In this document: piece by piece, positions 6,045 to 31,640 of the stretch | Position numbering within the stretch: position 1 is the stretch's first letter | Layout of the letters: every line of letters begins with the position of its first letter | Assembly: GCA_965153355.1 (NCBI GenBank) | Contig: OZ231126.1 | Coordinates: 3,348,001-3,412,000 of the forward strand | Reading direction: 5' to 3' | Length of the DNA: 64,000 nucleotides | Source: Flaccisagitta enflata | Lineage: Eukaryota | Made by a program: the position numbers and the translations under genes | The notes under the pieces: generated by a model | What the model saw: only the letters and a program-made list of their open reading frames with translations | Databases searched by the model: none | What the model was told of the DNA's origin: nothing

Positions 6045-6208
6045 AACTAGTCATCCAAGGATCGCACATGGTCAGCGGTACCCAATGCCCTGCTTGGGGT
6101 GACCAAGTGAAGTCGTGGAGTGAGAGCAGGGCAGCAGCCCCAAAGGGCCGATGTCCTGTAGGACACAGGGGGGAATTTCCAGACGTCCTGAGGGGGAATA
6201 TAGCAGGT
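6045..6208 (+). repeat. 5' half of the host repeat interrupted by the Transib element
   Basis: Matches the start of the uninterrupted relative at ~61811-61960. Its GGGCAGC..GATGTCCTGTAGGACACAGGGG arm pairs in inverted fashion with 32007-32059. Confidence 0.8.
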
Positions 6209-6240
6209 CACTAAAGGAACGTTGGCTAATTACCCGGAAT
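6209..6240 (+). repeat. Left TIR of the Transib element (preceded by TSD CAGGT)
   Basis: Inverted match to 31604-31635; begins CACTAAA. Confidence 0.88.
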
Positions 6241-6810
6241 CAGTCGTAGGGTGTAACTAAAATTTTAAAATTTGCCCCAGGACATTTATCTTCATATGTT
6301 ATCATCACTGCCCTGGCGAATTTTTGATTAGCGAAGTTCTTATGTTCTCCTGAGACATTCTTGAAAACAACGCAAATTTAGGTTGACCGCGTGTGCGGGA
6401 TGGCTGTATCAAAAATACCAACATGATACCTTTCTGAAGATGAAATTTCATGCTCAATCTTGTCGTGTGGCCATGATTTATCTTCTCCTTTGTCTTGACA
6501 GTTTTCAGTGTTTTCAACTTGCGTTCACCCTGGCTAAGTCCCGACGGTGGTCTACGCAATAACGTCAATAAAAACAGTTTTAGATGTCCGCCATGACTGT
6601 TTATCCGGAAAAAGTAAATCCAGCACGATCCAGCTTACTTATTTATTTGACTTGAGAAAATGTTATTTGCTTGAATTCCTCGTTTCGACGACATTCAGCG
6701 CTTGCATTTCAAAAATAGGTATTAGTCATTTTCTAGAGGGTGCTTTTTATCAAAGAGCTCTCACATTACACCAGTAGCAATTTTTGTCGCTACAAGACTA
6801 CGCTTCATGC

Positions 6811-6908
<98 letters not shown>

Positions 6909-7052
6909 GCATATTGCAAATACTGGCTGAACGGAAAAGCAATTCTTTAGTAAGTCAATGATTTCCCTTCATCATTTTTGCATGACCGATGTGTATAACG
7001 TTTCGGTTCTTTATCCTGATACTGTTTTTTGTTCACGGCGTGTCTCGGAAAA

Positions 7053-7158
7053 ATGGATAATATAACCATAGATCGAAAGAAGTTTTTCGAGAAACACGGA
7101 AAGATTATCTTCACCTTAACAGTTACTGCGCTTTGTAACTTGATTTTGGGTTTCAAAG
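7053..7158 (+). CDS. Transib transposase exon 1 ([12 protein letters not shown]...LGFK)
   Basis: ATG at 7053, donor AAG|GTATT; phase 1 matches exon 2. Confidence 0.6.
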
Positions 7159-9898
7159 GTATTCCCTTGTCATCGATTAATGTGCTTATATTCGTAGTTG
7201 CGTCCCGCATTAGTATAAGAGGGCCTGTATATGTACGTCGATCCTGATTGATCCATCAGTTTGTCAGCATGTCCGTTAGTATCATTGAAAATTATGTGGA
7301 TGACTCAAGTTTCTTGGAAGGGCTCATATTTATACTTAGGAGCTTCAACTGACTCAAATCTTCTATCATGCAGAATGTTACTCGTCATTTCATTCATTAT
7401 CATGTTTAGCTACGGCTAGGTCTGATCAGGTCAAGATAGGCCTAAGAATTAATAACACCGCGTATACAGCCTCGTTTTATTTTCACTCTTTCAAACGGAG
7501 ATGTTCAATCATATTCACTCTTTTCTCCAACTAAGAACCTTGTTTATAAGGACATCGAGGCTCAGATATGGAAAAAAAAGAACAACTATAAAAACATGTT
7601 CAGCCTCACATTAAGCATATTATAAGAACATTATTCTTTTTGTTTTTTATTTTAGGCAAATAGAGGAACTGCAGTAAACAAAAAAGATTTTGACTGCATT
7701 ATTGTAATTGTACAAATCAATCAGTCTCACACTTAGATTTAATTTGTTAGTGATTATTATTTTAGTTCTTATATCTTTTCAATTGCCTATCAGAGTTAGG
7801 TAACCAAACAAAAGTTTCCTGTATAAACTAGCCATTATAGAAATAAGAATATCCTAAGAACAATTTGAACCTCAGATCACCCTATAAATAAAAACATTGA
7901 GCCTCAAAAACAAATAACATAACATAAAAAAAAAAAGAGTGTAGAGACGTTTGTTTCCGTCAAAATTCTGTCTTTCATTCAAATCTTACTTTTCAGTAGT
8001 TTAGATTTTCAACACAATTGAAATAAAATATACAATGATGACGCAATGAATTTCCAGGCTTGAAGGCTGACTTTAATCAGTACGACAAGGAATCGAGACA
8101 AGATCTCACTAAATTGGCCAATTTGTACAAGGACAAAGGGTGGTGGAAATATGTCAATAAATTCAAGTATGTTTGGAAAAAGTTTCTGGCAAGTCGATGG
8201 ATGGCAACAATCGACCAGGTCTGAATTATTTCTTTCCAACAGTGATAACGATGGCGATCATTGCCATCAAATGCATTTACTGCATACATTCATACATGTC
8301 GGAAATTGTTCATAAACTTTGATTGCCTCATGAGGGAGTAAGCGAGCCCGTGAATGGAGTGAGTGAGCGTAGTGAAGGGGAGGGCTGTGAAGCGAGTGCC
8401 CATTTATAAACTCAATTGTCACGTGAAGATATATGCATTTAAAGCATTTGTTGTTTATTGATCGGGAAAAAAGTCAGTCAGTATTCGACTTTTTGACATA
8501 TTCGAGAGAAACAGGGTTTTCATTTTCTTATGAGGAAGTTGGGGATCTCCACCGAGCGAATGTTGCCTCCAATGAAATTGATAGGGTAAGTAAATTTGAT
8601 AATTCTCTTTCATTTGGCACCAAGCAGAATTCTCTACGACAAATATTAGGCGCGTTTTGATTTTTTAAACATTTATTTATAAAAATTGCGAATTGAATTT
8701 TTTCAATTTTTTATGATTTTGAGTGGGATCCAAAAAGGTGTATATTTATTTTTGTTTGAGTATGCAAATACAAAAAAACATGTTTATGAGCATAGCTGCT
8801 CATCCGTGAAGGTGTTTTAGAGGATTCTAGCTCATTTAGCTCAGTTTCTTTTTTTTATTTTAAATGTGATAAATGAATAGAAATTTTGATACATGTTAAA
8901 GAAAGCAGATACAAAAAAGCATATAAGCCAGCATAACTGCTCATCTGTGAGGGTATTTTTAAGCATTTTAGTTCACTTAGCTCATTTAGCTCAGTCTTTT
9001 TTTTTTCATTTTTAATGGGATAAATAAATATTTTGATGAGACCATGTAATTATAAGAAAGCATGTCAGTGAGCATAGCTGATTGTCTGGTTGAGTGATTT
9101 TGAGCATTTTAGCTCATCTAGCTCATTTGGCTCAGTCCTATTTTTCTCTGATTTTCAGTGCAATCAATACATACAATTGCTCTTGATTTGATCTAATAAG
9201 AAAAAAGATTTGCAGTGACTAAAGACAAAAGCTTGGTGAAAAATGATCAATGCTTACGACTTTTTTCCTCACGGCGACAGCCGCCATTACTGGTTTTCAT
9301 ACTTTTTTGGTTTATTAGAAGGATAAGCCGCTTTACAGTCCTACGTAAAGCGGTAATGGTTGCAAAAGAATGATGAAGCGTTCCGTGTGTTCGTTAAATT
9401 TCTAGATGAAAAAGCCAAAGCTGGCACCTCATTTTCAAGCTCATCAAAATCCTCCCGTCGGATGTGGAAGAAAAAGAAAATGTTTCGACGACTGCACTGA
9501 AATGACAAAGAAGAAAAAGGCGGCAGCTTTGGCTCAGGGAAAATCTATTGGTATAACGTTTGACTCAACGAAATGAGCAGCCCAGAAAATAGAGCGGGCC
9601 AAGGCCCGCAAATTTGCCGTTGGGCCTGCAAATTAGACTAGCTGCGGGCCCACACAGACACACATACAGACACACATACAGACACACACATACAGACACA
9701 CACACAGAGACACACGCAGAGACACACACACAGAGACACACACGCACAGACACACACAGAGACACACACACACAGACAAACACATAGAGACACACACACA
9801 GAGACACACACACACACACACACAGAGACACACACACAGAGACACACACACACACACACAGAGACACACACACACAGACACACACACAGACACACACA

Positions 9899-9974
<76 letters not shown>

Positions 9975-12900
9975 GACGGGTAAAAGACAAAAGTTACCAT
10001 TATTCATTGCATTATTCTTTCCATTTATTAGGAAGTTTGCATAGATAAAGAAATTCACTGCAGTGTTGTAGCAATGTGTCTACACAGGCTTATGACAACA
10101 GAAAGCTTTGAATAACTATATTTCAGTTGGGCCCGCTGTTTCCCTGTCTGGCCCGCAAAAATTAAGAGGAGCGGGCCCGACGGGCCCGTGGAGAAATATT
10201 ACTATTTTCAGTGCTGAAAATGAGTGAGATTCACCTCAATTTTCACCTTAAGGCATAATTTTGCCCAGTTCCTTGGCATGCGCTTTAATGAAGCTCAATT
10301 GTATATACTTTCTTCAATTGCCCCTTAACTTAGATGAGTGTTTGAGTGCTGCGGAATACTTGGCAAGGAAAGACAAGAATGTACCAGCAGTTGGAGTTAT
10401 CAAGTTGTTACGTGAACTGTACAATAAAAAGTGAGTCTTTTCCACGCTAAAAAAAAACAAGGTCATTAAATTGAAGTTGCGTGCGTCGGCACTAGAAATA
10501 AAAGTCAGGCAGACAGACAGACAAACAACTTCATTTAGAAGACATTTTAAAACGCTGTTTACTACTCCAAGTTTCTTACCTTCCATTCAAAAAAGCGCAA
10601 TAAAAAGCCTTTAAAACAATTTTGTGGTGGACGGAGAGACCATTGGACCAACGAACTGACAAACGGACATGACCAACCAACAAACCAACCAATGGACCAA
10701 CAAAAAGGGATGGACAGACAGACAAACCGACCAACCTATGGACTAACCAAAAAGTGGCTTAAAACGGTGCATGAATGCCTCTGAAACATCTAAAAGTCTT
10801 TAAATTATGTAAAGCGCCCTTTAAACAACTGTGACGGACAGACAGACCAATGGACGGACCAACAGACCAAAAAAGTGGCTTATAGAGTCGTGTAGCAGGC
10901 AACTAAAAAATAACATACCTAACGGAATAGTAATTCCGTGTTACCTTCACATGCATGATAACATTATTAGTAAATTTATTACATCATAGAATATTTACGT
11001 TATGACATCCATTTCGAAGGAAAGCCAACTCTACAATTTTATAAATAACTCGTCTAGCTCTAGGCGAACGGACCATATTTTTAGTCGCGTGCTATACGAC
11101 TCTCTACCGCGCTTTATCCGCCTGTTGGTGGGTTGGTTGGCCTCAATTTTACTTTTTTGGCTTTTTTGAGCTCACTGCCCCTTCCGACCTGCACGTGACC
11201 GGGGTAGCCATTTATCAGGCCTTAATTTGTCTTGTTTTCATTTGCCCCCATTGTAAAAAAGGCGACGAAAAATAGTCATTTGTCACATGTCGCATATGGG
11301 TGGCTAGGTCACTTTTCTGCAGAAATTTTCCTACCTCAGCTCGGAGGATATATAAATTTCTCTGTAATAATAGGGAGAGCCTTAGAAGAATGTTGGATGT
11401 CGTACTAAAACCTTGGCCAGTGTTGACAAAAATGAGCCCTATGGAAGGTTTGGCTTTATTGAGGGAGCTTAACGTATCCAAGTCTAGATATTCTTCGCTG
11501 ATACGCGCAAGCAAAAGGTGTGGCGCTCAGATTTATCCCTCTCAAAGACAAATATTGAAGGCAAAGAGATTTGTTTGGCCAGACAATATCAGGTACTGCA
11601 TGACCAATTCTGTTCCGTTTGTAAATTCCAAAATCATGGCTTAATAAAGTAAATTGAGTAAATGACTTTTGGGTGCTTCACATTGCAAAACTTGCGATTA
11701 TAACCTTACATAATATGGCAAAATAAAGATTATAAAAATTATTGCATGTATTTCTTGATGCAGTCATCTTTTGATTTTTTCAGCTTTGAAGTTGTCCATA
11801 AGAATCTAACAAGGCCAAGAGATGTCCAATAGATGCGTCCTCTTTGGATGTAAGATATTATCATACAAATTATTAAGATATAAAGATATTAAGATATAAT
11901 AATATGAAAATATAAAGATTCAGAGATAAAGAGAAAAATATAGACTGATTCCTCTCTTCCCCCCATACGCCTCTCCACCCCCCCCGCCTCCCTCCCCCTC
12001 CCCCACGCCGCCCCCCCTCCTCCCACCCCTCCCCTCCACGCCTCCCCACCCCTCCCCCCACGCCTCCCCACACCCCCCACACCTCCCCACCCCTCCCCCG
12101 CCTCATCCTCACAAAGAGACATGAAGGGACTTGGAGAGACATGGAGAGACATGAAGAGACATGAGGAAACATGAGAAGACGTAAGAGACATGAAGAGATA
12201 TAAGAGACATGAAGAGACATAAGAGATATAGAGATATAAGAGATATAAGAGATTTAAGAGACATAAGAGATATAAGAGACATAAGAGATATAAGAGATAA
12301 AAGAGATATAAGAGATATATAAGAGATATAAGAGATATAAGAGATATAAGAGATATAGATATAAGTGATTTAAGAGACATAAGAGACATAGGAGACATAA
12401 GAGACATATGAGACATAAGAGACATAGGAGACATAATAGACATATTGGAGACACATAGGAGACACATAGGAGACGAAAGAGACATAAGAGACATAAGAGA
12501 CCTAAGAGACATAAGAGAAATAAGAGACATAAGAGACATAAGAGACATAAGAGACATATAGGAGATGTAAGAGACATATAGCTATAGGAGACATAAGAGA
12601 CATGTAGGAGAAAAAAGAGACAAAAGAGACAAAAGAGACAAAAGAGACATAAGAAATATAAGAGACATGGAGAGACATGAAGGGAACAAAGAGAAAATCT
12701 TAAAAATCGCCTTTTGAAAATTTCTCATCACGGAACTTCAGACCCTCTTATAGAGACGCGAGGACGCATCTAAAAAGAGTATGGGTCCGCAACTGGGGTC
12801 AAACAGCGATGTCAAATGGCGATGTCAAACGGCATTGTCAAACCTCTACAAATTGCAAACATTTGTTGAGTCCTTCCATTTAGAGACTTTATTCCAAGTT

Positions 12901-15900
12901 TCAACCAAATTGATTGAAAAATGCCAAAGTTATGCACGTCTTTTACTTTTAGGCTGGTAGGCCAGTTGGGTGGTTATCTTTTAATTCTTTTTATCTATTT
13001 TGTCACTGAAAAGATGGTTAGAGATGAATAATTATTGATGTCACAAACAGGGGCTAAGAGGATGCAACTGAAAACATTGTGGGATGTAATTGCATTCTCT
13101 ATCAATCATATCCAGGGTCAACCAAACTCGGGTTGTTATTGGAATGCAAAGTCTTGTTGATATCACAATATCGCACCTGCTGCAAAGATCCGACGTCATT
13201 TTGCCACCAAATGTTATTGGCCCATACCATGCTATTCTGATATTTAAGTGGGGAATGGACGGAGCATCTGGACAGGCTCAGTATCATCAAGAGTTGCCAG
13301 AAAACAGTATGAATCAATAAGATATTTTGAAAATTTTGAAAATAAAAAACCGAGACAGGTTGCTTGCTTGCCATAGATATTTAGTCGCGTGCACGCAACT
13401 CTACATCCCGCTTTGTCCATCGGTTGGTCTGTCTGTTGGTCCGTCACACTTTTACTTTTTATATCAATTTTATTTCCTAAAGTCATTTTAGGTCATTTAA
13501 GAGAATACTAACTCATTCTAAGTTATTCTAATTCATTATGTAAGTCTCGCACGCGACTTATAGGTGTTGGCCTTGTTTAGTTGAGGACACGCAATTCTAT
13601 GAGAGGCTCTGTCTGTGCGCTGGTCCATCTGTCAGTCCGTAAGTACATACGTCCATCACGCTCCAGTAGGACACGCAAAAAACGAGCATTTACAATGCTG
13701 TAGTTATCAAGTCTGTGTATCAGTGTGAATGTGTGGGAGGGGGGTTGATGGGTGGGGTTTGGGTTAGGCTGGGGGTTGGTTGCTCCTGCCCATCCGTCGG
13801 CAACGATTTTTGAGACCCGTGTCACTTGTTTGTTTGAAGTATTACATATCAATCAATCAGGTACGGAATCTGAACAAGCACTTGACGCAAATGTATGGAC
13901 AGTGACTTATGTACCATTGGCTCTCATCATTAATAACACTTGGGTAAGTTCCATCTTGATGTGATTTACGCAATGCAATGTACGGTGAAAAAAAGGCCAA
14001 ATTACAGATAAGCCCCACTCTAACGGACCCGCCTTTAACGGAATTCGGCCTATAACAGATACAAACTCTTGGTTCCTTTAACCAGTTTTCTTTTGTTTCT
14101 TATGTTAGCTATAACTGAATTACCCCTATAACCAGGGGTGTATATTATTGAGTCGCTTTTGATTTTTCCCCCCCCCCCTGCCTTTGATTTTCTTCCCCGC
14201 GACGCGTCGCGTCACGTTTTTATATCGATGATTATCTTCCCTATAGAGCAATAAAACTATGTAGTTAAGGTTTAAAAAGTGTTATATTGTGTTTTACTAA
14301 TTGGGTTTTATGATTTAGTACTGTCAAAAGTTATATTTTCCCCAAATTTTCTCTTTTTTTTCTCTTTTTTCCCCCTTTGGTTTCCTTCCCCATCTCTAGA
14401 CCCTTTTATTTTTCCCCCGTGGGGGGGGGGGGAAAACTCAATAATATACAGGCCTGCCTATAACAGATAGAATTTGTTAGTCCCTTAAAATCGGTTGGAG
14501 CGGAATTTTACTGTGTGGCCAATAAGTGCTTCTCCAGGTGGTAAGAATGAAAAAGAAGTCAGAAGTGAGCCGTTTTACGCATATCATACATTTGCGTGAC
14601 CGACAAACCAATGAACGGACATAACCTCTCATAGACTTTAAACAAGGCCAAGTAGGCCAATAGGTGCGATGTGTGGATCGTCAAACGAATGCGTTACCAA
14701 CCAACTAACCAACCGACCAACCAACCAACGGACACAGCCAGTTATAGAGGTGCTTTGTCGCACCTAAAAGGGCCATCTAACGAAGTCCTAATCCTCTTTA
14801 AACTTTGCAGATCTGGTTTAACAGATGTGCAGCAGGGGTCACGTGGAATAGGCCCATAGTGTATGAACTTGGAAAAGGTGATTATCTGGCGATTAGGTTT
14901 ACTGATGAATAAACCTAATTATTTTCATTGCATAGAAATTTCACAGGGATATTTTGTCAAATTTCCACTTAGAAACATCGGAAAAGACAACTGGAGAATA
15001 TAAGCGTTTGAAACGTGATATAAAAAGGCTGAGGAAAACTGCTTGTGAGGTATCTACAACCATCTTTGAAAACAAGGCCGGATACACGGCTACTGAAGTC
15101 GCGTGTGGGTGGGCAGGGGCCATATTTGAGGTCACTAGACCATTTGGGCAGGAGCAGTAAGGTCAAAGAAATAAAATCATAAAAAGAAGTAAAACATGAC
15201 CAATGGACCGACCAACGGACAAAGCGGGTTGTAGAGTCGCGTGCACGCGACTAAAAAACAGGCTTAACAGGCCAACAGTAGTTCAGCAAAAATTAGCTCA
15301 TTAAGTTGTCTCATTTTTTATGTATTGGGTATTGTTTTGATACAATTTAAAAATGTTACAGGACCAGCAGACCGACGGACCGACGGACCAACAAAAAGAG
15401 CAAGGTGTAGAGTTGCGACTAAAAAAATATTGCTTGCTTTCTGATTGTGTAAGAGGATGTGTCCATCCATGGAAACATATTGCATTTTCTAATTACAAAA
15501 AAATGCCCCGGTTAATTGCACCTACCAACTTACAAAACTGTTCCTGCCTTTTTGCACCACTAGGCACTGACTTTTCCCTCCCATAAGTAACTATTGATAG
15601 GCTTACATTAAACAAGAATTGATAACTTTGCATGAGTCCATCCACTGTTCAGGTGAATGTTGGTGGGGAGAAAAGAGCTGTACTGGTAAAACATGTGGGA
15701 ATGGCAAGTATGATTGATGGTAAAGTTCGGGCCACCTTGCTTGGTACTGGAATGGCCACTTGTCCATTATGTAAGGCCTCTCCAACACAAATGAAAGATG
15801 TCGTTGGTTGCTTACAGCGAGAAATTGATCCAGGTAAAACAGCAAAAAAGAAAGTGTATTACGATGCGCCGCATTAAAAACAGGACAGTTTGTATCAATA

Positions 15901-18900
15901 GCATATTATTGCGCAAAAATGGATTATTGAAACCAAATACGGATGAATATGTCGCTCATGTGTTTGTAGTTAATGGATGGCCTGGATGGCAAGCTCCATA
16001 GAGCATGGCAATGTGGCAAATAAGTTGGCGAGGTAGTCGACGGTGAGGGGCACCAAACTGTAAAAGTAACTATGGCATAGGACACTTTGTAATGCTGGTT
16101 TCTGCTTAACCATTGGCCTGAGACACAAAAAATTCATGACCATTTGAAAGCCCTTCAAAAAATCTTCCAAATGCGACGTTGCTGGTCATTATAGCTTTAT
16201 TCGTTTAAAAGTGGCAAAGGTTTGAAGATAAAAATCACTGTTTGGAAAAAGTGCTCATTTCAAATTTTTCCGACAAGCAATTTAAGTCTTTCAGTTTTTG
16301 TCAATGATGAAGCTTAGGATTGTCTTTGATACTCGATATCCATGGGCAAATTAAAGAGCTTCGAATTGTCTTTAAAATGGCGCCAAGAACAAATATCTCC
16401 CTTAATGCGTTTGATTTTTGTGTTAAAATAAAGATAACCCCTTAAAATCACGTAGTAAATTTCCAAATTTTTGACAGCCTGTCTTCATCCTAATGCCATT
16501 TTTAAACGGTTAAAGTTAGGCCATCCAGAAAGGTCTCATTTGAAAGATCTTTCGCAGAGCTTCAAAGTGGTCATGGATTTTGCTATGTTTTTCTCATTGC
16601 ATGAATGTAAGACACTGACATACAAGTGGTTCGCTTTTTGTTTTTTGCCATGGTTAGTTTTTTTCCCATTCCATTTTCTATAGCTTCTCTTTAGAGCGTC
16701 ACTGACTCACTGCGTCCAAACGAATTGACCGATTTAAACGCGGTTTGCGGCAAACACTTCGTCTTTCGAAGAGCTTCAAATAGGTCACCAATAAAGCCAT
16801 GATTATATCATTTTGAGCCGAGAAATATAGGTAAATGTACTGTCCTGTTTTTAATGCACCGCACTGTAGTGGCGGAAAGTGGCGGAAAGTGCATTATAGG
16901 CGGAATTCTGTTAGAGGCAATATAAGAAATAACTAGGCCGGATACATGGCAACCCCAGTTGCCTGTGGGTGGGCAGGTGCTGTATTCAAGGTCACCAGAG
17001 CATTTGGGCAGGGGCAGTGCGGTCAAAGAATAAATAGTCGCAAAAGCGTTAGATGGTCAGCGGTACCCGTTGCCCCTATGTAAGTGTATGTGGGTGTAAG
17101 GTGGTTAGAGGGGCAGCGGCCCCAAAGGGGCTGATGACCTATGCTGTTTTTATTTGCATAGGCGGAATCCCGTTGGTGGCGGGTCCCTTAGAGCGGGATT
17201 CAACTGTACAAAAATCAATGAATGTCTTTTTAGTACATCTCTGATTAATACTTAACAACATACTGAACATGACTATATTTTAACTCCTAAGCTAGGTATG
17301 ACTTTGGAATTTCACTAACGCATGCCTGGATAAGGTTTGCTGATGCTATATTACAAATCGCGTATCGGCTAGACTTTCCAGCGGATTCCCCCACTGGACG
17401 ACCGTGGCAGGTACTACATGAATTAGAAAAAAAGACGCACCTTTACATTTGCTGATAAAACTGACTCAAAAAGTGTTAAAATTTTTTTTTAGAGGAAGTG
17501 ATTTTGAAGATTTTCAAATTATCTTTCATTCTAGACCAATCCCAGATCTGTATCTTCAACGGTTTAGGAGCTAGAGCGCTCTAAAGTGAAACACCATTTT
17601 GCTGAATTGCATCTTTTTCAAAGGAACTGCAAAAACAAATTTGGCAATATTTTTATTCAAACTAATGCCATTTCTAAACGAAAAAAGATAGAGATACCAG
17701 ATTGGCGCCAAATGAAAGAGTTTTTCAAGAGCTTCAAAATGGTCTAAGATTTTAATTAGTTTTTTTATTTTCAATGGCGCAATCAGCCATTCAAAAGTGC
17801 GTCTTTTTTTTTAATTCATATAGTATTAAGCACCCTCTTCGAAATGACCGTTTTTAGTTCCTGTTGCCGCAATCTGATAAGCTTTGTTTGCTCTACCCCC
17901 CCTCCCCACCCCCTTCCAAACATGTGTCCAAAGACAGAATCACAACTACAGTATCTGAAATTAGTGAACAGAAATGTCGCATCCACAATATGAATCATTG
18001 ATGAAAACCGTCTTAATTCCACCCCGAAATGGATACTGATCTCAATTCTAGGCAGTTTTTTTGTGATTTTAGGCCCGTGGGTCACATTTGCAAAGCATAA
18101 AGAAACAGACAAAGAGGAGAATGCAGCAAGAGTTCATAAATCGTCTGCACTTGCGTGTTGATTTTCCTATACCTGGGGGAAGTGGAAACTCTTTGAATGG
18201 CAATGTTGCAAGGAAATTGTTTCATAACGAAAAGGTATGTCAGGCTGCAAACCAAGCCAAAATTTAATGAGTCAACACAAGATTTGGACAATTTTTGATA
18301 TCATCAAATAATGAGTTTTTTAACTAGATTTTTTTGTATTCATCTGTGATATTTTTGTGAAAAATACTAGTAATGACAGCCGTCGCCATAAGGAAAAAAG
18401 TCATGAGGAAAAGAGTCGTAAGCATTGGCTTATTTCCACTTAGCTTTTGTCTTCAGTCACATTCACAGCAATTTTTTTAATTAGTAAGAATTAATCTGGA
18501 GCAACTGTATATCCTGTCTAGAGCAAAAGTATGGCAATAGATGTTTTGAGCAATATCTCCGCTTAGAATAAAAAATCCATATAGACATCAGTGAGATTCT
18601 AAAATAAGAACAAATTTTTGATGCAATGACGCAAACTGCATTCATCAAGATAAAAGTATTTAGAAATCACAGAAAAAACAAGATTGCTACTCCAAATCAA
18701 AAATGACAAAAAAATTGCAGTTAATTATTAAAAGTTAGCACTCTGACACATTGCGCTGTAAAAAAAATTCAATCTAAATTTTTCAGAACTAAATCTTTAA
18801 AAATTGATAACTCAAAAAATATTTATTGTAAAAAATTCTGCTTGGTGACAAATGAAAACAAATTATTAAATTTTCTCACCCTATCAATATCATTTGAGGC

Positions 18901-21900
18901 TTCAAATAGCCGGATGAATTCCTAAACTTTCTCATAAGAAATTGAAATGTTTCTTAGCAATGTGTCAAAAAGTCGAAGACTGACTTTGACTTTTTTCCCG
19001 ATAATTGATATCTCATTTAGATGTAAGAAAAATGGGTCATGTTAGGTAATTCAACCCGGTGCACTTGTTTTTCCCCACAAGGACAAATCTTTAATTCAAG
19101 CTTACTCGAGCTAAAACATATAAAACCAAACCCACACCTAACCCTCACCCTATCCCTTATCCCTACTCTATCCCTAACCCTAAAACCCACCCCACCCCCA
19201 AACCCTAACCCCACCCCAAAACCCTAAAACATTACCCGCTTAAAAACACTTAAAAACAAAAGACACGAACGTGACCGAAAAATGAAGATGAATGATGCGA
19301 AAATGGTGGATTTTTGAAGAAAATCAGATTTTGCGAACAGTTTTGTCTCGGGTGAAATTCTAAGCCCGCTTCTAATTAGATACATTTGCATTTCCAAAAA
19401 ACATAGCCCACTGAAAACATAATAGAATAAGGATATGTTCTTAGATTTGCAAAAACTTGCATGTGGAGACAGTCTTATAGTTTTACCCAAATACTTTATA
19501 AATTTGCACTACTTGATTTTCAGAGAATTCTTGCAAAGCAGTCATTATTTCCGTCTCCCATCAATGCAATATCAAGTTTGTTGGTTTGTTTTCAGTTGCG
19601 GACACGCAACTCTTTAAGAGGCTTTGTCGGTCCGTCTGTCGGTCCATCCGTCGGTTCTTTCGTAACCCACAAGTCTAGAATTGGAAAACAAGCGTTTTAG
19701 ATGCCTTTTTTTGTTTGGGTGTTGATGGTGGGGTTATGGGGTGTGGATGGGGGTTGGATGCCCTTGCCCACCCGTCCGCAACGATATTGTGACCCCGCGT
19801 CACGTGTAATTGTTAAGCATTGTATATGAGAATAGTAAGATTAAACAAGGCCGGATACACGGCCACCAGTTGCGGACGGGTGGACAGGGGCGGATATGCG
19901 CGTTTTCACACATTTCGATTCGTGCTGACGGATGGACAGACGGACGGACGGACAAAGCCTCTCATAGAATTGCGTCTCCGCAACTACAAAACTAAGTATA
20001 CTTTGATTTTATAAAATATAAGAGTAGGTTATGAATTTGTATGGTTGACCAATTTTGCCTTTGTTTGCACTGTAACGTCTCAGGAACAGCCAGCCGATTT
20101 ATTGTGTAAATCGCAACCTGAATATTGTTTTCCAAGGCTATAGAGGAAAAAGGTTCTTCATTGGACTTTTTGTTACTTACAGATATTCTCAGAGATTACT
20201 AAAGTTGATCTAGACATGATCCAAAGATTACACAACATCCTTAAGACACTGAACTGCGGCTACGAAGTTGATTGGGATGCGTTTCACAATTACGGTACAG
20301 CCATCAGAGTAGAATTAGCAATGTGATTGTTGGGGGGGGGGTCTGAGGAGGTTTTGTTGGGGGGGGTTCACCCCTGCCTAGCCATCCACAGCAATATTGT
20401 TATATCAGGTTGTTTCAGAGCTCTTCAGTGTCAGGCTGATATTTTTCTAACATTTTATAGCTGTGGATACTGCGCGGAAGATGCGTCTTTTGTATCCATT
20501 TGCGCCACCAACACCTAGTGTTCACTCGATTCTCATTCACGGAGCTAAAATGCTCAAGAATATGCCTCTTCCCGCCACCTTTTGGGATGAGGGTGAGTGT
20601 AAAGCAAAATCAGTGACATAGACAAATACATTAACATTCTGTGCTTAACCTTCACAGAAAACTGACAAGTAGCCCTTATATGTTGATGTTGCATTAAATG
20701 ATTGTATCAGGAAGATTTTCACTTTCAACCGCTGGGAAAGTACACGAGAGTTGCGTAGATCATTTGGTTATGACTCTATCTCAGAAATTTATGCAAAACG
20801 ACAACGAAATTTTTTCAGTTGTCTCCACCTCACTGGTAATCCTGTCTTAGTGAAAATACGATCTCTCACACTTGAAACAAACCAATGATATTGGTTAAAC
20901 AACTACTAATTTCTATGCATTCTTTTTTTTTTAACTCCTATTCTCTGAATGATGAACGTATGTACTGTCGCAAATTTCGTTGATGAATAAACAGCATGTA
21001 ATAAATGATGCAGGGTCGGCAGAGTCTGCAAACAAAGATGACCGTAAAAACCGCGTCGATTTCGCACGAAAAGTTAGTCGTGAAAGTAATCTTACCGACG
21101 TCGTTCACAAACACATCGAGTGTTCGGATCCTTTGGTTTTGGAGGCCAGGGAGAAAATCCATATGCGCTTGAAAGTGAAAACTCCACCAACGCCAGCAAT
21201 GCTACCATTACTCAAGCGGGATGCAGATGGAAACTACTATGGGGTTGAAAAACGACTTTCTTCATCAGGTTTCTCCCTATATTCTTGAGATCCAAGTAGC
21301 ACGAAGTCGGCAATATATGGTCAGCGCAAATGTGCCATTGATCTGCATAAGTGGTTTAGGATTTAATTTGGCCAGAATCTGGGTCAGCTCTGTCGTCTAC
21401 TGTGTTGGTGCATCCATCCGTCAGTCAGTGTATTGGTTTGTATGTCCATTGAATTTTCTTATGAAACACAGCTCTTGGTAGTGTAGATGTTGTCTAGATT
21501 TGAAAATAGGGGGAATTCATGTCAGAACAAGGCCGGATACACGGCTACCCCAGTCGCGTGCGGGTAGGCAGGAGCAGTGCAGGAGAAGGTCACTAGAGTG
21601 GTTTGGAGGGAGCAGTAGGCTCAAAAAGCTCAAAATGCCGAAAATGCTAAAAAATATTGATTTTTTTTTTCTGAATTACATGGAAATGAATTTCCATGGC
21701 AACCTACACCTATTATCAATAAAGCATTTTCATATTAGTTTATATTCCAAGTATCAGTCTTTAATGCTTATTTGCCTTCTCACTATGAATTCCCCGTATT
21801 TCCATGTCTAGACGATTTATACATTAGTTTTTGAATGTGGCTTTGTCACATATTCCATTAAACAGTTCTGTCTCTTTTCATGAGTCTTTTCATCGCAATA

Positions 21901-22122
21901 TCAGCATGACACGGATGGTGCATCATTGTATGATCAAGCTTGTATTCTTTAATCATGGCCTGCTCAACTACTTGCTGATAATTCCGTTGTCTATCAGGCA
22001 TTGGTTCTGAGTATCCATTGACAAGCGGATGCGAGAGTGACATTGAATCGGAGGGCGGCTACGATAGCGATTGCAGTACAGAAAGTGCATGTTATTCTTC
22101 AGAAGATGAATGTGACGAGTAA
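7053..22122 (+). CDS. Intron-rich Transib/RAG1-core-like DDE transposase, 16 predicted exons, ~760 aa, apparently intact
   Basis: join(7053-7158, 8058-8218, 9406-9550, 10334-10430, 11323-11592, 13116-13306, 13861-13943, 14811-14877, 14973-15049, 15653-15833, 17292-17410, 18073-18234, 20183-20294, 20461-20592, 21014-21268, 21998-22122) = 2283 nt. All introns are GT-AG with compatible phases. Motifs in Transib order: GRKRKCF..TKKK, EGLALL..SKSRY..IYPS, FKWGMDG (D), VPL, NRPI..KET, SMIDGK (D), [60 protein letters not shown] (E), ARK.SR, SDP. The first and last exons are less certain; an alternative stop lies at 21286-21288. Confidence 0.9.
8058..8218 (+). CDS. Transib transposase exon 2 (LKADFNQY...[15 protein letters not shown])
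   Basis: TTCCAG| acceptor, CAG|GT donor, open frame. Confidence 0.7.
9406..9550 (+). CDS. Transib transposase exon 3 ([18 protein letters not shown]; resembles the GRP motif of the RAG1 nonamer-binding region)
   Basis: TTTCTAG| acceptor, G|GTATA donor, phase 0 to 1. Confidence 0.8.
10334..10430 (+). CDS. Transib transposase exon 4 ([12 protein letters not shown]...LLRELYNK)
   Basis: CTTAG| acceptor, |GTGAGT donor, phase 1 to 2. Confidence 0.8.
11323..11592 (+). CDS. Transib transposase exon 5 (SPMEGLALL...[17 protein letters not shown])
   Basis: TTTTCTGCAG| acceptor, AG|GTACT donor; Transib EALAL/LSK..Y/YPS..AK motif. Confidence 0.9.
11808..12776. repeat. Interspersed repeat carrying a 9-bp AGAGACATA/AGAGATATA tandem array and a C-rich tract (Transib intron 5)
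   Basis: Starts AACAAGGCC and ends GAGACGCGAGGACGCATCTAAAA; array at ~12115-12690. Confidence 0.7.
13116..13306 (+). CDS. Transib transposase exon 6 with the first catalytic Asp ([15 protein letters not shown] codon 13258-13260)
   Basis: Matches the Transib KWGxDG..GQ..Y motif (RAG1 D600 equivalent). Confidence 0.93.
13861..13943 (+). CDS. Transib transposase exon 7 ([14 protein letters not shown])
   Basis: CAG| acceptor, |GTAAGT donor; VPL motif. Confidence 0.85.
14133..14456. mobile_element. hAT-type MITE in Transib intron 7, itself nested in another small element (~14003-14513)
   Basis: CAGGGGTGTATATTATTGAG...CTCAATAATATACAGGCCTG with 8-bp TSD CCTATAAC. Relatives at ~27689-28013, ~32760-33234 and 56579-60123. 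Confidence 0.8.
14811..14877 (+). CDS. Transib transposase exon 8 (IWFN...[10 protein letters not shown])
   Basis: TTTGCAG| acceptor; IW.N...RPI motif. Confidence 0.85.
14973..15049 (+). CDS. Transib transposase exon 9 ([20 protein letters not shown])
   Basis: CTTAG| acceptor, GAG|GTATC donor; completes the KET motif across a 95-nt intron. Confidence 0.85.
15653..15833 (+). CDS. Transib transposase exon 10 with the second catalytic Asp (SMIDGKV; D 15716-15718) and CPLC zinc ligands
   Basis: Transib TMIDGKV...CxxC motif (RAG1 D708 equivalent). Confidence 0.93.
15862..16866. mobile_element. Tc1/mariner-type non-autonomous element in Transib intron 10
   Basis: Inverted ends sharing GCATTAAAAACAGGACAGT, flanked by TA on both sides. 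Confidence 0.7.
17292..17410 (+). CDS. Transib transposase exon 11 ([14 protein letters not shown]...AYRL...WQ)
   Basis: Matches Transib FGLS.LHAWIRF...SYRL. The phase requires the AAG acceptor at 17289-17291. Confidence 0.9.
17414..17823. mobile_element. TA-flanked MITE at the start of Transib intron 11
   Basis: CTACATGAATTAGAAAAAAAGACGCAC vs inverted CTATATGAATTAAAAAAAAAGACGCAC. Relatives at ~37668-38081 and ~29125-29293. Confidence 0.7.
18073..18234 (+). CDS. Transib transposase exon 12 (ARG...LRVDFP...[13 protein letters not shown])
   Basis: TTTTAG| acceptor, AAG|GTATGT donor; GN..AR motif. Confidence 0.92.
20183..20294 (+). CDS. Transib transposase exon 13 ([19 protein letters not shown]...GYEVD)
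   Basis: TTACAG| acceptor; matches Transib S.ITG.D..LI.R...IL....GY.ID. Confidence 0.9.
20461..20592 (+). CDS. Transib transposase exon 14 (LYP...[10 protein letters not shown]; HxxxxH zinc ligands)
   Basis: TTTATAG| acceptor, G|GTGAGT donor. Confidence 0.92.
21014..21268 (+). CDS. Transib transposase exon 15 with the catalytic Glu ([10 protein letters not shown] 21022-21024), ARKVSR and SDP
   Basis: RAG1 E962-equivalent motif. The frame could alternatively run on to TGA at 21286-21288. Confidence 0.9.
21998..22122 (+). CDS. Probable terminal exon 16: acidic tail (...[29 protein letters not shown])
   Basis: TATCAG| acceptor, phase-compatible with the donor at 21269, strongly D/E/S-biased, ends at TAA. 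Confidence 0.55.
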
Positions 22123-22598
22123 TTGGCAGTGGCGGGTGCCATTTCATTCTTTGTAAAGATTTTTGGGTTACTTATTGAATTTCCAATGATTGGTTACTAT
22201 TTGAAGTTGTTCAGTTGTGGAGGGTTTATCCGTTCATAGGCTCGTTTGTTGGTAACGTTTGAGTAAAAATTTTCGAAAAGCAGTTTTGCATTTGTTTGTT
22301 TGTCCGCAACTGAAGTTCTGAAATTCTGAATTAGGTTGGTTCAGTCAACTAATTTCCTTTCCTTTCCCTCATGACGTTCTACTATTTCAATCATACAAGA
22401 AATGATGATGTTGCTTCATTTACAAAGAAAATCTTTAACATGTTTTGAGAGGTCTGTGTTTTTTGCACTAGGCTGAACGCTAGGAAGTAGAAAGATGCAA
22501 TAGTTGTGTATGTGCATGTGTATTTTTGTGTGTGTGTGGGGAGGGGGGAGTGTATGTGTGTGTGCGTATGTGGGTGTAAGTATGTGTGTGGGGGACGG

Positions 22599-22670
<72 letters not shown>

Positions 22671-23517
22671 CTTTATCATGGAAAAAAGTCGCATTAGAGT
22701 TGAAAGTTGGGGTAGAAATAAAGTTATCTTATTTTACTTTGAACAAGGCCGGATACACGGCTACCCTAGTCGCGTGCGGGTGGGCAGAAGCAGTACTGGA
22801 GAAGGTCGCTAGGGCATCTGGGCAGGAGCTGTATGCTCAAAAAGAAAAAGTAAAAAGGGGACCAACCAACCAACCAATCGACTGACCGACCGACCGACCA
22901 ACCGACATAGCGTGATGTAAAGTCACGTAGCACGCGACTTAAAAAAGATAAGAGCGGGCAACCCGTCAGTCCATCCGTCCGTCGCTCACGCTTAGCTTTT
23001 TTAGCGCTTACGGGCGGTTTTGGAGTTACTGCTCCTGCACGGCGGCACCATTGACGGACATAGACAATTTTGAGTGTGCAGACCTCTGACTGGTCAAGAA
23101 AGGTCCCACAGCATGTGGTGAACACCAAACACCCGTTGGCAAATTATTCCGAAGGCAAAAAATTGATTACACAACACTTTTGTATGACTGCGAAAGTCCC
23201 AAACTTGAGTTTCTCAGATATCGTTTTTCTTTCTATCTACGTAGGAAGTTCTTACTTTGTCGCTTGCAAAAATCAAAGTACTGCGTAAAATGCAGTAACA
23301 GATGAAATTTTTTTCAATATTCTGAGTTTTGGGTATGCTGGAATGTCTCGTCAACAGCATCCATAGAGTAAACGCCAAGATCAATATCGCTATTTTCCGA
23401 CAATTGAAAACTTGAATGTTAATCAGGCCGTTAGTATCTGTCTGTCAATTTGTCAATGTCTGTCTTTCAGAATTGTCTGTCTGTCTTTCTCTGTCTCTCA
23501 CAGTCTCTGTCTGTCTG

Positions 23518-23552
<35 letters not shown>

Positions 23553-23557
23553 GTTTC

Positions 23558-23598
<41 letters not shown>

Positions 23599-23660
23599 GC
23601 CTCTCTCTCTCTCTCTCCCTCTCCCTCTCCCTCTCTTTCTCTTTCTCTTTCTCTTTCTCT

Positions 23661-23709
<49 letters not shown>

Positions 23710-24019
23710 CTTGTGCGTGTGTCGGGGGGGGGGGTTGGCCTGTTAAGTGTTAATGTAACTGCTCTGAAGGCATTTGGGCCCACCTGTCAATTTCTTTTTA
23801 CTCGTTGCATGTACGTAACTGGAACTGCTTGTCGGTTGGTCCATCTATATACGTCTATTTAGCCAGCTGGTCATCACTGTCATCACTGTCATCACTGTAC
23901 ATTTATCTCCATACATCATACGAAAATCTTATTCTTTACCAAAATAAATATTATAATGCGAGATTCGAATTCAAATACTTTTCAACCATTCAAAAATACG
24001 AATACAACAATTCAATCTT

Positions 24020-25038
24020 TCAGGTGTGACGAGCATTGTAGACCGTAACGCTTTTAAGCAACTTTGTCGCGTACGAGGTGGCGTTGAGATCTTTGACAAT
24101 GTATCCTTTGTAGTGCGCATCGAAGTCCGCATGTAATGCTTCCCCCGCAGACTCATTCAGCAAAGCTGTTCCGTGTCCTATAGAGGATCCCAATCATAAA
24201 ATGACAAATTTCATTTTCATACACAAAAAGAAATAAAAATGAAAATACATGTACACACGCACTCATGTTTACCATCATGGACGTAAAAGAATCTACTATG
24301 TACTGTCAAGCGAATATATGAGGATACAGTCGTAGTTTAAGCACCTGTGCGCGCCAACTCTTCCGGCAATTTTGTGCAATTTTGGAAATATTGGTATTTG
24401 CAGATCCATCCAGCTCCTTTCAAACTCATTGAGGTATCTCATGTAAAACGGATCCAAGTTGTAGCCAAAACAGGCGGTTACAACGGCATCGAAAGCTTTA
24501 AACACCGTCAGAAAGCGATAATGTTCCCCCGGGAGTAGTTCATCAAGGAGATCCAGGTTCCTCAGTAAAGTATTGCATTCGTTCCCCTGATGCCAAATGG
24601 ACAAAAAGAGCTTGTTGCGTGCTGTTGGATAGACTGACAGGATGTCATGAAAAACTGACAAACCGACATATTAGTTCCATATGATGCTGTGGCTTAACTG
24701 ACGAGGCTGATACAGGCATATTTACAGACCAGACGTCTGGAGGACTTAAAACGGCAATGACATACGGGCTGAAATACGCAATTCAAAGGTTTTTCCATGA
24801 TATTCCTCGTTCGTAACACCAAGTTTGGTAGGCCAGACATGAAATTCAGGCCACCTCGATTCCAACGCATCACAAAGCTTGTTGACAATTTCAAGAAAGA
24901 TATGTAGTGCAGGAAAACCAAACGACTCCGCCACCTCCAACTCGGCGTCACGGGTAATCAAAGGTTCGTTTTTGACGCTAAAGCAAAGTTTTCCGTCCTT
25001 CGCTCGCTTTTGAGATTTTGCATACTTCTCGTATTTTT
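24020..25038 (-). pseudogene. Chapaev-like transposase C-terminal exons (pseudogene)
   Basis: Exons 25038-24782 (..FPALHIFLEIVNKL..WP..YHGKTFE; donor reads TT instead of GT), 24586-24345 (GNECNTLL..VVTACFG..PKLHKI, with a frameshift), and 24177-24020 (HGTALLNESAGEALHADF..VYNARHT*, containing the likely catalytic Glu). A degenerate Cys/His N-terminal remnant lies near 30173-30310. Confidence 0.8.
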
Positions 25039-25149
25039 CTGAGCAATGATTAGTATAAGACAGAGGGTGAAACGGAGATAAAAATGAAGAGACTGATGAA
25101 AAGAGATGAAGAGACCGACAAAGGTAAAGGAGAGAGGGGCAGTGATGCG

Positions 25150-25418
<269 letters not shown>

Positions 25419-26526
25419 GCGCGCGAACACACATACAACCAAAGAATAATAGTCGCAAAAGCGTCAGATGGTCAACGCTACCCGTGCCCTGCCTAAGTAG
25501 GTTGTGCTTGAATTTGAAGGGGAAGCAGGGCAGCGGCCCCAAAGGGGTAGATGACCTATGCTTTCGCACATGTGGGGAATTTTCTCCTCCTCCTCCTCCT
25601 TCTCCTCCTTCTTTGTCCCTTCCCCCTCAAATCCCAGTCTTGAGGCCAAAATTCCTGTCTTGAGGCCCAAATCCCAGTCTCAACGCCCAAATCCCAGCCT
25701 AAAGGCTGAAATCCTAGCCTGGAGGCCCAGATCCTTGCCTTGAGGCCCAAATATCAGCTTCAAGGTTGGGATCTGGGCCTCTTGGCTGGGATTTGGACCT
25801 CAAGGCTGAGATTTGGGCCTCCAGGCTAAGATCTGGGCCTCCAGGCTAGGATTTGGGCTTTGAGGCTAGGATTTGGGCCTCAAGGCTAGGATTGCCGGAA
25901 ACCTTTTCCACTTGATCGCCTTTGAAGTTGAAATGACAAAATCCCTCGAAACATAGGCGTTCCTCGCGTGAGTCTTGAGTCAAGATCATCTTCACTTTGG
26001 CTTCGGATATCATTCTCTTTTGAATAAAATATAATTCGAGAAGGTTTAATTTTTCTTATGGTTCAATGGACTACCAGTAGCTACAGATGGAATGACGCGT
26101 GTAGGAACAGAGCGACGGACAACTTCTTTAAAGGATTTGCATTTAATCAAAAGAAATGCAGCGATTAGCTAACCTCAAATTGTATTGTATTTACAATACC
26201 TGGAATTAGTAATTTGAATGTTGACTGAAAAAAAATCAACGACGTGATTATTATCAGGACATTCATCGTGCTGTAATCGGACAATTTACGGGCGTCATCT
26301 AGCTTATCTTTTTATGAGTTTACAATTACAAAAGCGCATTTCAAAAGTCATGTTCACTACTAGAGTGGTCACTATTTGACCTTTTCATCTTGGTATTCAC
26401 GGCATTAACATGGGCCATCCACAACATCCAAACACCATTTTTCTAAAAGGGCATTACTCTTCATGCATCTGAAAACCCTGCGGAGTAAGATAGGGTGATG
26501 AAAGTGGATGTTGTTTTTTTTTTGCA

Positions 26527-26735
26527 AGCTCATAGGTTATGGCTATCCATTTGTTTTCTTGTGTAATCAACCGGCAAGGGGAAAACATCATAAAGTGCGA
26601 TCTGATCACATTTATAGGATTAGTAATAAAGGCTAAGTACCCATTACTACAATCCAGAACCCCCCCCCCCCTAAAAAAGGTCGTTTATTAAGAAATGGCA
26701 TCTTTATTTCATTCAAGTTTTCTTTCATTGAATGA

Positions 26736-26823
<88 letters not shown>

Positions 26824-26858
26824 TGTGTGTGTGTGTGTGTCTGTGTGTGTGTGTGTGT

Positions 26859-26911
<53 letters not shown>

Positions 26912-31603: not shown

Positions 31604-31635
31604 ATTCCGGTAATTTAGCCAACGTTCCCTTAGTG
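31604..31635 (-). repeat. Right TIR of the Transib element (followed by TSD CAGGT)
   Basis: Reverse complement begins CACTAAG; 28/32 identity to the left TIR. Confidence 0.88.
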
Positions 31636-31640
31636 CAGGT

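Follow-up and report, generated by a model that had tools for sequence, protein, structure and literature searches.

The question raised by this locus is whether a series of short open reading frames in the genome of Flaccisagitta enflata forms a single, intron-split transposase gene of the Transib/RAG1 family, and whether such a gene belongs to a mobile element or to the host. The Transib family of transposons gave rise to the core of RAG1 in the vertebrate V(D)J recombinase, and its described members are compact elements of about 4 kb whose genes have one intron or none. The window, which is the whole stretch of DNA that was analysed, comprises 64,000 nucleotides of contig OZ231126.1 (assembly GCA_965153355.1, positions 3,348,001 to 3,412,000), and all coordinates given here refer to it. 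An initial annotation of the window had proposed a 16-exon, RAG1-core-like transposase with an intact set of catalytic residues.

The transposase gene model was rebuilt using splice sites and homology. The rebuild reproduced 16 exons of 67–270 nt and 15 introns of 95–1948 nt, and the exon chain reported for the window is thereby confirmed. All 15 predicted introns have GT-AG ends, the criterion for spliceosomal introns of the U2 type, and their removal restores one open frame of 2283 nt (760 codons and a stop) with zero internal stops and zero frameshifts. The exons of the predicted gene, with the nodes of the Transib hidden Markov model (HMM) that they match, are the following:

7053–7158, + strand: exon 1, predicted, begins at ATG, without homology support
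8058–8218, + strand: exon 2, predicted, weakly supported, with a weak donor GTCTGA at 8219
9406–9550, + strand: exon 3, nodes 90–124, E = 0.015, with a GRKRK motif
10334–10430, + strand: exon 4, donor GTGAGT, 3' junction within a variable insert region of the HMM alignment
11323–11592, + strand: exon 5, N-terminal DNA-binding region of the transposase core, nodes 175–234, E = 4.4e-7
13116–13306, + strand: exon 6, first catalytic Asp (KWGMDG), nodes 232–297, E = 3e-11
13861–13943, + strand: exon 7, weak HMM match, nodes 294–321, donor GTAAGT
14811–14877, + strand: exon 8, 67 nt, consecutive HMM nodes over both junctions
14973–15049, + strand: exon 9, nodes 335–376, E = 0.058
15653–15833, + strand: exon 10, second catalytic Asp (MIDGK) and CPLC zinc pair, nodes 370–429, E = 2.9e-7
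17292–17410, + strand: exon 11, nodes 431–459, E = 2.1e-8
18073–18234, + strand: exon 12, nodes 464–518, E = 3.2e-9, donor GTATGT
20183–20294, + strand: exon 13, nodes 514–555, E = 4.9e-10
20461–20592, + strand: exon 14, HSILIH histidine pair, nodes 554–591, E = 4.5e-4
21014–21268, + strand: exon 15, catalytic Glu (AESANK), nodes 599–662, E = 2.5e-9
21998–22122, + strand: exon 16, predicted acidic tail, without homology support, past the end of the HMM

The identity of the encoded protein was established by profile and structure-database searches. Six-frame translation of the whole window gave 3156 ORF pieces, of which eight match the Transib HMM with E < 1e-3; these eight are collinear and all lie on the + strand. 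Two more collinear pieces follow (E = 0.015 and E = 0.058), and no other piece in the window does better than E = 0.73. A profile search with the spliced protein, which the initial annotation had proposed as a check, identifies a full-length transposase of the Transib/RAG1-core type at about 400 bits: the 16-exon version scores 402 bits over nodes 22–662 of 682, and the 14- and 13-exon versions score 397–398 bits. The reversed spliced protein has no match to the same HMM at E ≤ 1000. The reference Transibs behind the profile and the comparison are single ORFs of 640–715 aa, and the best blastp alignment of the spliced protein to full-length Transibs has 31.9% identity over 611 aa (E = 2.7e-91). 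The matched HMM nodes are consecutive at 11 of the 15 junctions; three junctions lie in or beside insert states, and one lies beyond the end of the model. In searches of the PDB with four single exon pieces, the sole match was the Helicoverpa Transib 6PQN (chain 6pqn_A), in collinear order: residues 6–68 for exon 5 (E = 0.019), 66–122 for exon 6 (E = 2.2e-6), 198–238 for exon 10, and 417–467 for exon 15 (E = 0.0078).

Exons 3–15 have homology support, that of exon 2 is weak, and exons 1 and 16 have none. Twelve GT-AG introns are verified by homology, compared with 15 in the full model. Exons 1 and 2 together add only 4.5 bits to the HMM score. The ORF piece of exon 2 alone is absent among the 40 best Transib HMM matches and has no RING-type Pfam match, and the N-terminal exons are uncertain. 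In the added alignment, exon 2 retains the conserved N-terminal W/F/W columns. Its connection to exon 3 requires the weak donor site at 8218, the stronger GTATGT at 8166 being out of frame with exon 3. Exon 3 opens with an ATG immediately 3' of an in-frame TAG and is therefore an alternative start. The frame of exon 15 is open as far as a TGA at 21286–21288, and a shorter model of 13 exons from the ATG at 9406 to the TGA at 21286 encodes 636 aa with an equal score of 397.8 bits. The weakest splice site is the AAG acceptor of exon 11 (intron 10), for which there is an in-frame alternative pair, 15855 with 17296. Dispersed repeats are absent from all 16 exons and present in 10 of the 15 introns. 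P0001, a protein of 88 aa from another assembly, is 70% identical to exon 6 over 60 aa, without gaps, and the likeness begins and ends at the modelled exon borders. Among the 1.8 billion representative proteins of the library searched, the one close relative is P0001, which is a single exon-sized ORF. The more distant fragments P0002, P0004, and P0007 (31–36% identity) span the sites of introns 5 to 9, in whole or in part, without interruption.

The assignment of the catalytic D, D, and E to the motifs KWGMDG, MIDGK, and AESANK holds in the PDB matches, where these residues are aligned with positions 109, 208, and 419 of the 6pqn_A chain. Given a 16-residue offset, these positions are D125, D224, and E435 of HzTransib, which are named as its catalytic residues in the accessible part of a preprint (10.64898/2026.08.26.747230). 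The reading frames that contain the motifs are all on the + strand, at 13090–13317 (KWGMDG), 15626–15874 (MIDGK and CPLC), 20451–20618 (HSILIH), and 20956–21285 (AESANK). CPLC and HSILIH occupy, as had been proposed, the conserved C..C and H..H columns (HMM nodes 406–409 and 574–579), which are invariant in 30 references. From the RAG1/Transib literature, we take these columns to be zinc binders, and the D/D/E of the transposase is presumably the counterpart of RAG1 D600/D708/E962. The reference clade has 117 columns with conservation of 90% or more; at 36 of these, among them the C of the CRP motif, the window protein has a different residue. The changes may reflect divergence of the lineage or, alternatively, may be a sign of loss of function.

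The gene is enclosed by the ends of a transposon, which are themselves enclosed by a host repeat:

6129–6188, + strand: left arm of a host foldback-type repeat, the insertion target, a 60-nt inverted match (57/60) to 31999–32058
6204–6208, no strand: left copy of the 5-bp target site duplication (TSD) CAGGT, identical to 31636–31640
6209–6240, + strand: left terminal inverted repeat (TIR), 32 bp, starts with 5'-CAC, 28/32 ungapped matches to the reverse complement of 31604–31635
31604–31635, − strand: right TIR, inverted match to the left TIR
31636–31640, no strand: right copy of the 5-bp TSD CAGGT
31999–32058, − strand: right arm of the host foldback-type repeat, inverted match to the left arm

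A 21-mer of the TIR has only two sites within the window, and none of 100 shuffles yielded two matches. Contigs of the public run X1 contain the left flank up to 6207 followed by sequence resembling 31641–31660 (19/20, unique in the window), and they unite both flanks over a single copy of CAGGT, with the insert absent. The TIRs, the CAGGT duplication, and the empty-site contigs thus place the gene within a 25.4-kb Transib insertion (6209–31635), in agreement with the earlier proposal that it resides in a transposon. The accessible text of PMC1131882 gives a Transib TIR consensus of CACAATG, a 23-nt spacer, and an A-rich nonamer. When the TIRs were compared by eye with such an RSS-like arrangement (CACAATG heptamer, spacer of about 23 nt, A-rich nonamer), CAC alone agreed, and the consensus is that of insect families and not a strict requirement. 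Positions 31–39 read ATCAGTCGT at the left end and ATTTTTTGA at the right end. The element is known from one copy, and the exact TIR pattern and exon 6 have no match in the metagenome collection.

The left arm of the foldback repeat has high depth in RNA-library contigs, and the left flank (6100–6208) has no listed differences from the X1 contigs despite deep coverage. A high-copy target with no listed differences in its left arm indicates a fairly recent insertion rather than an ancient fixed gene.

The locus probably represents a coding-competent, intron-split DDE transposase gene of the Transib superfamily, located in a 25.4-kb insertion with TIRs and a CAGGT TSD within a high-copy foldback repeat. 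The interpretation offered by the initial annotation is supported in this respect. Transcription and splicing would yield an enzyme of about 640–760 aa that binds the TIRs, and the element would be mobilised by the nick-hairpin cut-and-paste reaction of the Transib/RAG type, leaving 5-bp duplications. The intron-rich structure may have originated within this Transib lineage, with parsimony favouring intron gain over loss, and the element appears to have moved fairly recently as a large, intron-laden unit. Counted against the transposon explanation are the unspliced or absent RNA, the unsupported terminal exons and little-supported exon 2, the weak AAG acceptor, the 36 altered conserved columns, the agreement of the TIRs in CAC only, the single copy, and the size of 25 kb, which far exceeds the approximately 4 kb of described Transibs.

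The RNA data are sparse in the region of the gene. Of 12.16 million records, about 6% of the poly(A) RNA run X5, 393 were placed on the window, 392 of them only partly and on repeats, and the depth is zero in the bins over exons 13–15. No joints at predicted introns were found in four runs, X5 and three sets of metatranscriptome contigs, in which exon coverage is nil or nearly nil. One 164-nt X1 contig (depth 2.1) runs unspliced over the donor of exon 6. Because no spliced RNA was seen, the enzyme can be called potentially active only as a statement about its sequence. It is possible, but unlikely, that the gene is a silent Transib copy, intact in appearance only on account of its recent insertion, that has lost transcription, correct splicing, or catalytic competence. 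The lack of reads on exons and the unspliced state of the single contig over an exon boundary are consistent with such a silent copy, as are the alterations in several columns conserved among other Transibs, the one weak acceptor, the weak or unsupported 5' exons, and the very large size of the element. However, about 6% of one run and three sets of metatranscriptome contigs are too thin to serve as a negative result, and the 2283 nt without a stop or frameshift, the 15 GT-AG pairs, and the retention of all catalytic and zinc residues argue against decay.

There is likewise a small chance that the gene is a domesticated, Transib-derived host gene and that its TIR-like ends are leftovers or unrelated. 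Its introns and host-like size would then have resulted from a long residence and from selection for a role in the cell. The host-like structure, with 13–15 introns over 13–15 kb and a density of intron repeats equal to that of the surrounding genome, fits this explanation, as does the intact ORF. Intron-bearing domesticated transposases are known, for example PGBD5, according to the accessible part of PMC3902484. The same exon also occurs in a second assembly, as P0001, with 70% identity, no gaps, and conservative changes. The TIRs with a perfect 5-bp TSD, the existence of an uninterrupted target copy, and the fairly recent insertion to which the high-copy target repeat without listed left-arm differences points speak against domestication, and expression was not seen in the RNA runs examined. 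A more speculative idea, to which we assign little weight, is that of a Transib lineage partway to becoming a host gene, in which selection in at least two species (P0001) maintains a RAG1-type recombinase gene with a fully host-like structure of 13–16 exons for a cellular role such as programmed DNA cutting, and one copy retains usable ends. If true, a RAG1-family transposase would have been tamed a second time, separately from vertebrate RAG1.

The enzyme had been described as being of the RAG1 type. Its membership in the Transib/RAG1-core family stands; within this family, it is of the Transib type and not of the RAG1 or RAG1L type. The alternative that it is the RAG1L gene of a RAGL/ProtoRAG-type transposon with a RAG2-like partner is very improbable and largely refuted. 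The CAC-initiated TIRs and 5-bp TSD are compatible with a RAGL element, the TIR start CACTAAAGGAACGTTGG resembles, by eye, the protostome RAGL consensus CACTWMCAAACKTYKBB in the accessible text of PMC7204232, and the 3' part of the element contains a convergent minus-strand ORF. However, this ORF has no significant likeness to anything, and all four PDB searches with exon pieces match the Helicoverpa Transib chain only, with no RAG1 or RAG1L at E ≤ 1 or E ≤ 10. The window protein is 27–32% identical to Transibs, whereas Transib and RAG1/RAG1L share less than 22% identity according to the same part of PMC7204232. The 15 ORF pieces at 22.1–31.6 kb have no significant Pfam match, and kelch, RAG2, and PHD are absent from them, although a much-split gene could escape such a search; the only Pfam match listed for these pieces is RNA_pol_Rpb5_C (E = 0.12). 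A chance chain of open frames without a gene, which is favoured by the absence of RNA support and nothing else, has next to no probability and is refuted by the ten collinear HMM matches on one strand and the score of the spliced protein.

The novelty of the locus is an unusual gene structure in a known kind of mobile element. The transposase is obtainable only via 12–15 splicing events, although the ends, TSD, and catalytic set are intact, and a full host-gene architecture is thus attainable by transposon genes that are still within a mobile unit. Such lineages are missed by ORF-based surveys of Transib and RAG1 diversity. The element also offers a natural case for the timing of intron entry into transposase genes, before or after domestication.

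In comparison with known systems, the window protein belongs to the same family as HzTransib (6PQN), with the same domain order, and keeps the D, D, and E and the C..C pair. It differs in that its exons score only 16–31 bits each and in that the TIR diverges after CAC. The insect-type Transib relatives that were recovered are about 27–32% identical and are encoded by single ORFs of 640–715 aa, in contrast to the 13–15 introns of the window gene. That Transib genes are otherwise intron-poor, as had been assumed, agrees with these single-ORF references and with the two exons of Transib1_SP; no report of a comparably intron-rich Transib was found in the literature searched. Transib1_SP of the purple sea urchin (PMC1131882) is a Transib from outside the insects whose transposase has 676 aa and which shares TIRs and a 5-bp TSD with the window element, but its 4132 bp and two exons contrast with the 25.4 kb and 13–16 exons of the window element. 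RAGL/ProtoRAG transposons and vertebrate RAG1 share with it a homologous DDE and zinc-site core, TIRs or RSS that begin with CAC, and duplications of 5 bp, whereas no RAG2-like partner was found among the ORF pieces at 22.1–31.6 kb, no RAG1 N-terminal region was detected in the uncertain N-terminal exons, and the sequence is nearer to Transib. RAG1L genes are described with about three exons in PMC4411706, compared with 13–16 in the window gene. Several spliceosomal introns within a transposase frame are described, in the accessible texts, for CACTA transposases (PMC4158355) and domesticated PGBD5 (PMC3902484), which belong to other superfamilies. PGBD5 is fixed in its host and has lost the ends of a transposon, whereas the window gene is still positioned between TIRs with a TSD.

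The transposase gene predicted at 7053-22122 is real: it is intact, of Transib type and related to the RAG1 core, and is divided into many exons in the manner of a host gene. Rebuilding the model with GT-AG sites chosen to preserve the reading frame reproduced the exon organization proposed in the initial annotation, with 16 exons (67-270 nt) and 15 introns (95-1948 nt). The rebuilt frame spans 2283 nt and encodes 760 aa. The motifs KWGMDG, MIDGK, AESANK, CPLC, and HSILIH were all located in open frames on the plus strand. Read unspliced in a single frame, the locus contains 249 stops.

In PDB searches with single exon-bearing frames, every match was to chain 6pqn_A, the Helicoverpa zea Transib transposase. 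RAG1 or RAG1L chains were absent from the matches of the four frames, which are collinear along 6pqn_A:

11276-11641, plus strand: frame matching 6pqn_A residues 6-68, E=0.019
13090-13317, plus strand: frame matching 6pqn_A residues 66-122, E=2.2e-6
15626-15877, plus strand: frame matching 6pqn_A residues 198-238, E=0.17
20956-21288, plus strand: frame matching 6pqn_A residues 417-467, E=0.0078

A Pfam search with nine single exon pieces, which are too short for this purpose, gave no RAG1-type match, and a homologue search with the last-exon piece found no longer proteins. When the exon 6 frame was used as query for HMMER against all of 1.84 billion representative proteins, eight matches were returned. 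The profile made from five of these retrieved 1017 Transib-type proteins, the best 120 of which are mostly of insect origin. A Transib HMM was built from 71 sequences of 640-715 aa, one of which (library protein P0008) is unrelated, with 13% identity. In six-frame translation the whole window yields 3156 ORF pieces, eight of which match this HMM at E<1e-3; all eight lie on the plus strand, within 11276-21285, and follow the order of the HMM. Two further collinear pieces have E-values of 0.015 and 0.058, and the next best piece anywhere in the window has E=0.73. The spliced 16-exon protein aligns with the Transib core, as had been proposed, and scores 402.2 bits, whereas its reversed sequence, used as a control, gave no match.

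Shorter forms of the gene score nearly as high: 397.7 bits for 14 exons starting at ATG 9406, and 397.8 bits for 13 exons ending at TGA 21286. The HMM match nodes are consecutive across the splice point at 11 of the 15 junctions; three junctions lie in or beside variable insert states, and one is past the HMM end. Predicted exons 3-15 and introns 3-14 are backed by homology. Exons 1 and 2 together contribute just 4.5 bits. Exon 2 keeps the conserved N-terminal W/F/W columns. It depends on a weak donor at 8218, since splicing at the stronger one, 8166, would lose the frame of exon 3. Exons 1 and 16 are predicted solely from their splice signals. Intron 10 ends in a weak acceptor, AAG, and has an in-frame alternative pair at 15855|17296.

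The aspartates of KWGMDG and MIDGK and the glutamate of AESANK align with positions 109, 208, and 419 of 6pqn_A, which correspond, after a 16-residue offset, to D125, D224, and E435, named as the HzTransib catalytic triad in a 2026 preprint (10.64898/2026.08.26.747230). The alignments bear out the intact D, D, and E of the initial annotation. The proposed zinc-site motifs CPLC and HSILIH sit on the C..C and H..H columns, which are invariant in 30 reference Transibs. A DDE triad common to Transib and RAG1 is described in PMC1131882, and the equivalence to RAG1 D600/D708/E962 is taken from the literature.

RNA data over 6100-25100 comprised one poly(A) run, about 6% of which was read, and three metatranscriptome contig sets. 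Coverage in these four runs falls on repeats only, with no joint at any predicted intron, and the bins over exons 13-15 have zero depth in these thin data. One 164-nt contig of depth 2 runs through the exon 6 donor without splicing, and comparable intronic contigs of low depth accompany it, a pattern that fits DNA carry-over or pre-mRNA. The RNA data neither support nor refute the gene model.

Beyond the coordinates of the initial annotation, the transposase gene is enclosed by terminal inverted repeats (TIRs), found by scanning for CAC...GTG termini. Aligned without gaps, the TIRs at 6209-6240 and 31604-31635 agree in 28 of 32 positions; by eye, two single-base gaps raise this to about 30. 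Both are flanked by the identical five bases CAGGT. The TIR 21-mer is absent elsewhere in the window, and two matches occurred in none of 100 shuffles. Metagenome scans found neither the TIR nor exon 6 relatives. Just beyond each element end lies a 60-nt arm of a dispersed repeat, the two arms being oriented towards one another:

6129-6188 and 31999-32058: inverted arms, at least 60 nt each, of a foldback-type target repeat
about 31660-31960: 20-nt tandem units associated with the foldback-type target repeat

Contigs of the public run X1 track the left flank to 6207. Of their next 20 nt, 19 agree with 31641-31660, the stretch adjoining the right CAGGT, and this match is unique in the window. 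A 24-nt version of the empty-site motif has four mismatches and gave no match at the three-mismatch limit. Since the X1 contigs join the flanks, other copies of the foldback repeat carry an uninterrupted target. The TIRs bound an insertion of 25.4 kb that is flanked by a 5-bp duplication, the Transib hallmark according to PMC1131882. Positions 6100-6208 have no listed differences from the X1 contigs despite high depth, so the target copy, and hence the insertion, is probably not old. The foldback repeat is highly abundant in RNA-library contigs, with depth in the thousands, and the window has further copies or fragments of it around 17053-17241 and 62264-62323.

Dispersed repeats account for 36%, and microsatellites for 14%, of the remainder of the element (22.1-31.6 kb). 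No RAG2-like gene was detected there: none of its 15 ORF pieces matches kelch, RAG2, or PHD. The same TIR-bounded element holds a second frame, convergent with the transposase gene:

25060-24766, 24621-24304, and 24177-24020, minus strand: three putative exons, joinable through GT-AG introns; open, 256 aa

By eye this frame resembles a Transib C-terminal half, and language-model features give it a weak leaning to clusters that contain RAG1_ZnH2. None of the tests based on alignment was positive: Pfam, PDB phmmer, HMM, blastp, phmmer, and a homologue search found nothing, and hhalign gave a probability of 0.2-0.3%. No kinship is claimed. In its 3' part the element also has a local tandem duplication (about 500 nt), with minus-strand frames at 26454-26684 and 26725-27183, and a long microsatellite/minisatellite block lies downstream of the transposase gene at 25154-25416.

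The window is metazoan DNA, as its XK-related gene shows. Short dispersed repeats and microsatellites abound in it, and neither an Rfam nor a tRNA scan of the window found anything. Its other features are:

34198-36149, plus strand: XK-related (PF09815) membrane-protein gene, at least two exons; the nearest ordinary host gene
41462-42304 and 51450-52292, plus strand: 280-aa open frame, identical in two copies 9988 nt apart
58218-58769, minus strand: 183-aa open frame, near-identical to the first 180 aa of the 280-aa frame, from which it departs in its last three residues

The 280-aa frame, which belongs to no Pfam family, marks a roughly 10-kb repeat or multi-copy element.

Dispersed repeats occur in 10 of the 15 transposase introns, making up as much as 70% of intron length, and in none of the 16 exons. 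They stop short of the splice sites, and the junctions show no duplication of coding bases. The introns are therefore ordinary introns that later gathered insertions, not insertions breaking an ORF. Long microsatellite/minisatellite blocks are present in introns 3 and 5 (9640-9990 and 11900-12700). The only close relative found in the 1.84 billion representative proteins is P0001, an exon-sized ORF of 88 aa from another assembly, where its contig is 654 nt long. Along 60 aa of exon 6 the two share 70% identity; the alignment is ungapped and the substitutions are conservative. The likeness starts and stops at the predicted borders of exon 6, so the same exon structure exists elsewhere. Translating the end of the intron that precedes exon 6 gives a few residues that also look alike in P0001, which suggests that the intron is homologous in the two. 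The more distant fragments P0002, P0004, and P0007 are uninterrupted at some or all positions of introns 5-9, and each of the full-length Transib references consists of one ORF. On grounds of parsimony, intron gain is the favoured history for the Transib lineage of the window, an inference biased because ORF-based protein libraries show intron-rich relatives only as exon-sized scraps.

The spliced protein is 27-32% identical to insect-type Transibs, which share about 42% identity among themselves; PMC7204232 gives less than 22% between Transib and RAG1/RAG1L. The protein is therefore a divergent Transib. The interpretation in the initial annotation was largely correct: the RAG1-core relationship stands, with the transposase being of Transib type and not of RAG1L type. 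After its first three bases, CAC, the TIR departs from the insect Transib consensus CACAATG. Its start, CACTAAAGGAACGTTGGC (6209-6226), is closer by eye, with one 1-nt shift, to the protostome RAGL consensus CACTWMCAAACKTYKBB (PMC7204232), and begins with CACTA, like the ends of the CACTA superfamily. Transib1_SP has two exons (PMC1131882) and RAG1L genes have about three (PMC4411706), in contrast to 13-16 in the gene described here. In literature searches outside Repbase and paper supplements, two was the highest exon number found for a Transib. The element is a giant, otherwise canonical insertion and a new structural variant of the known Transib family.
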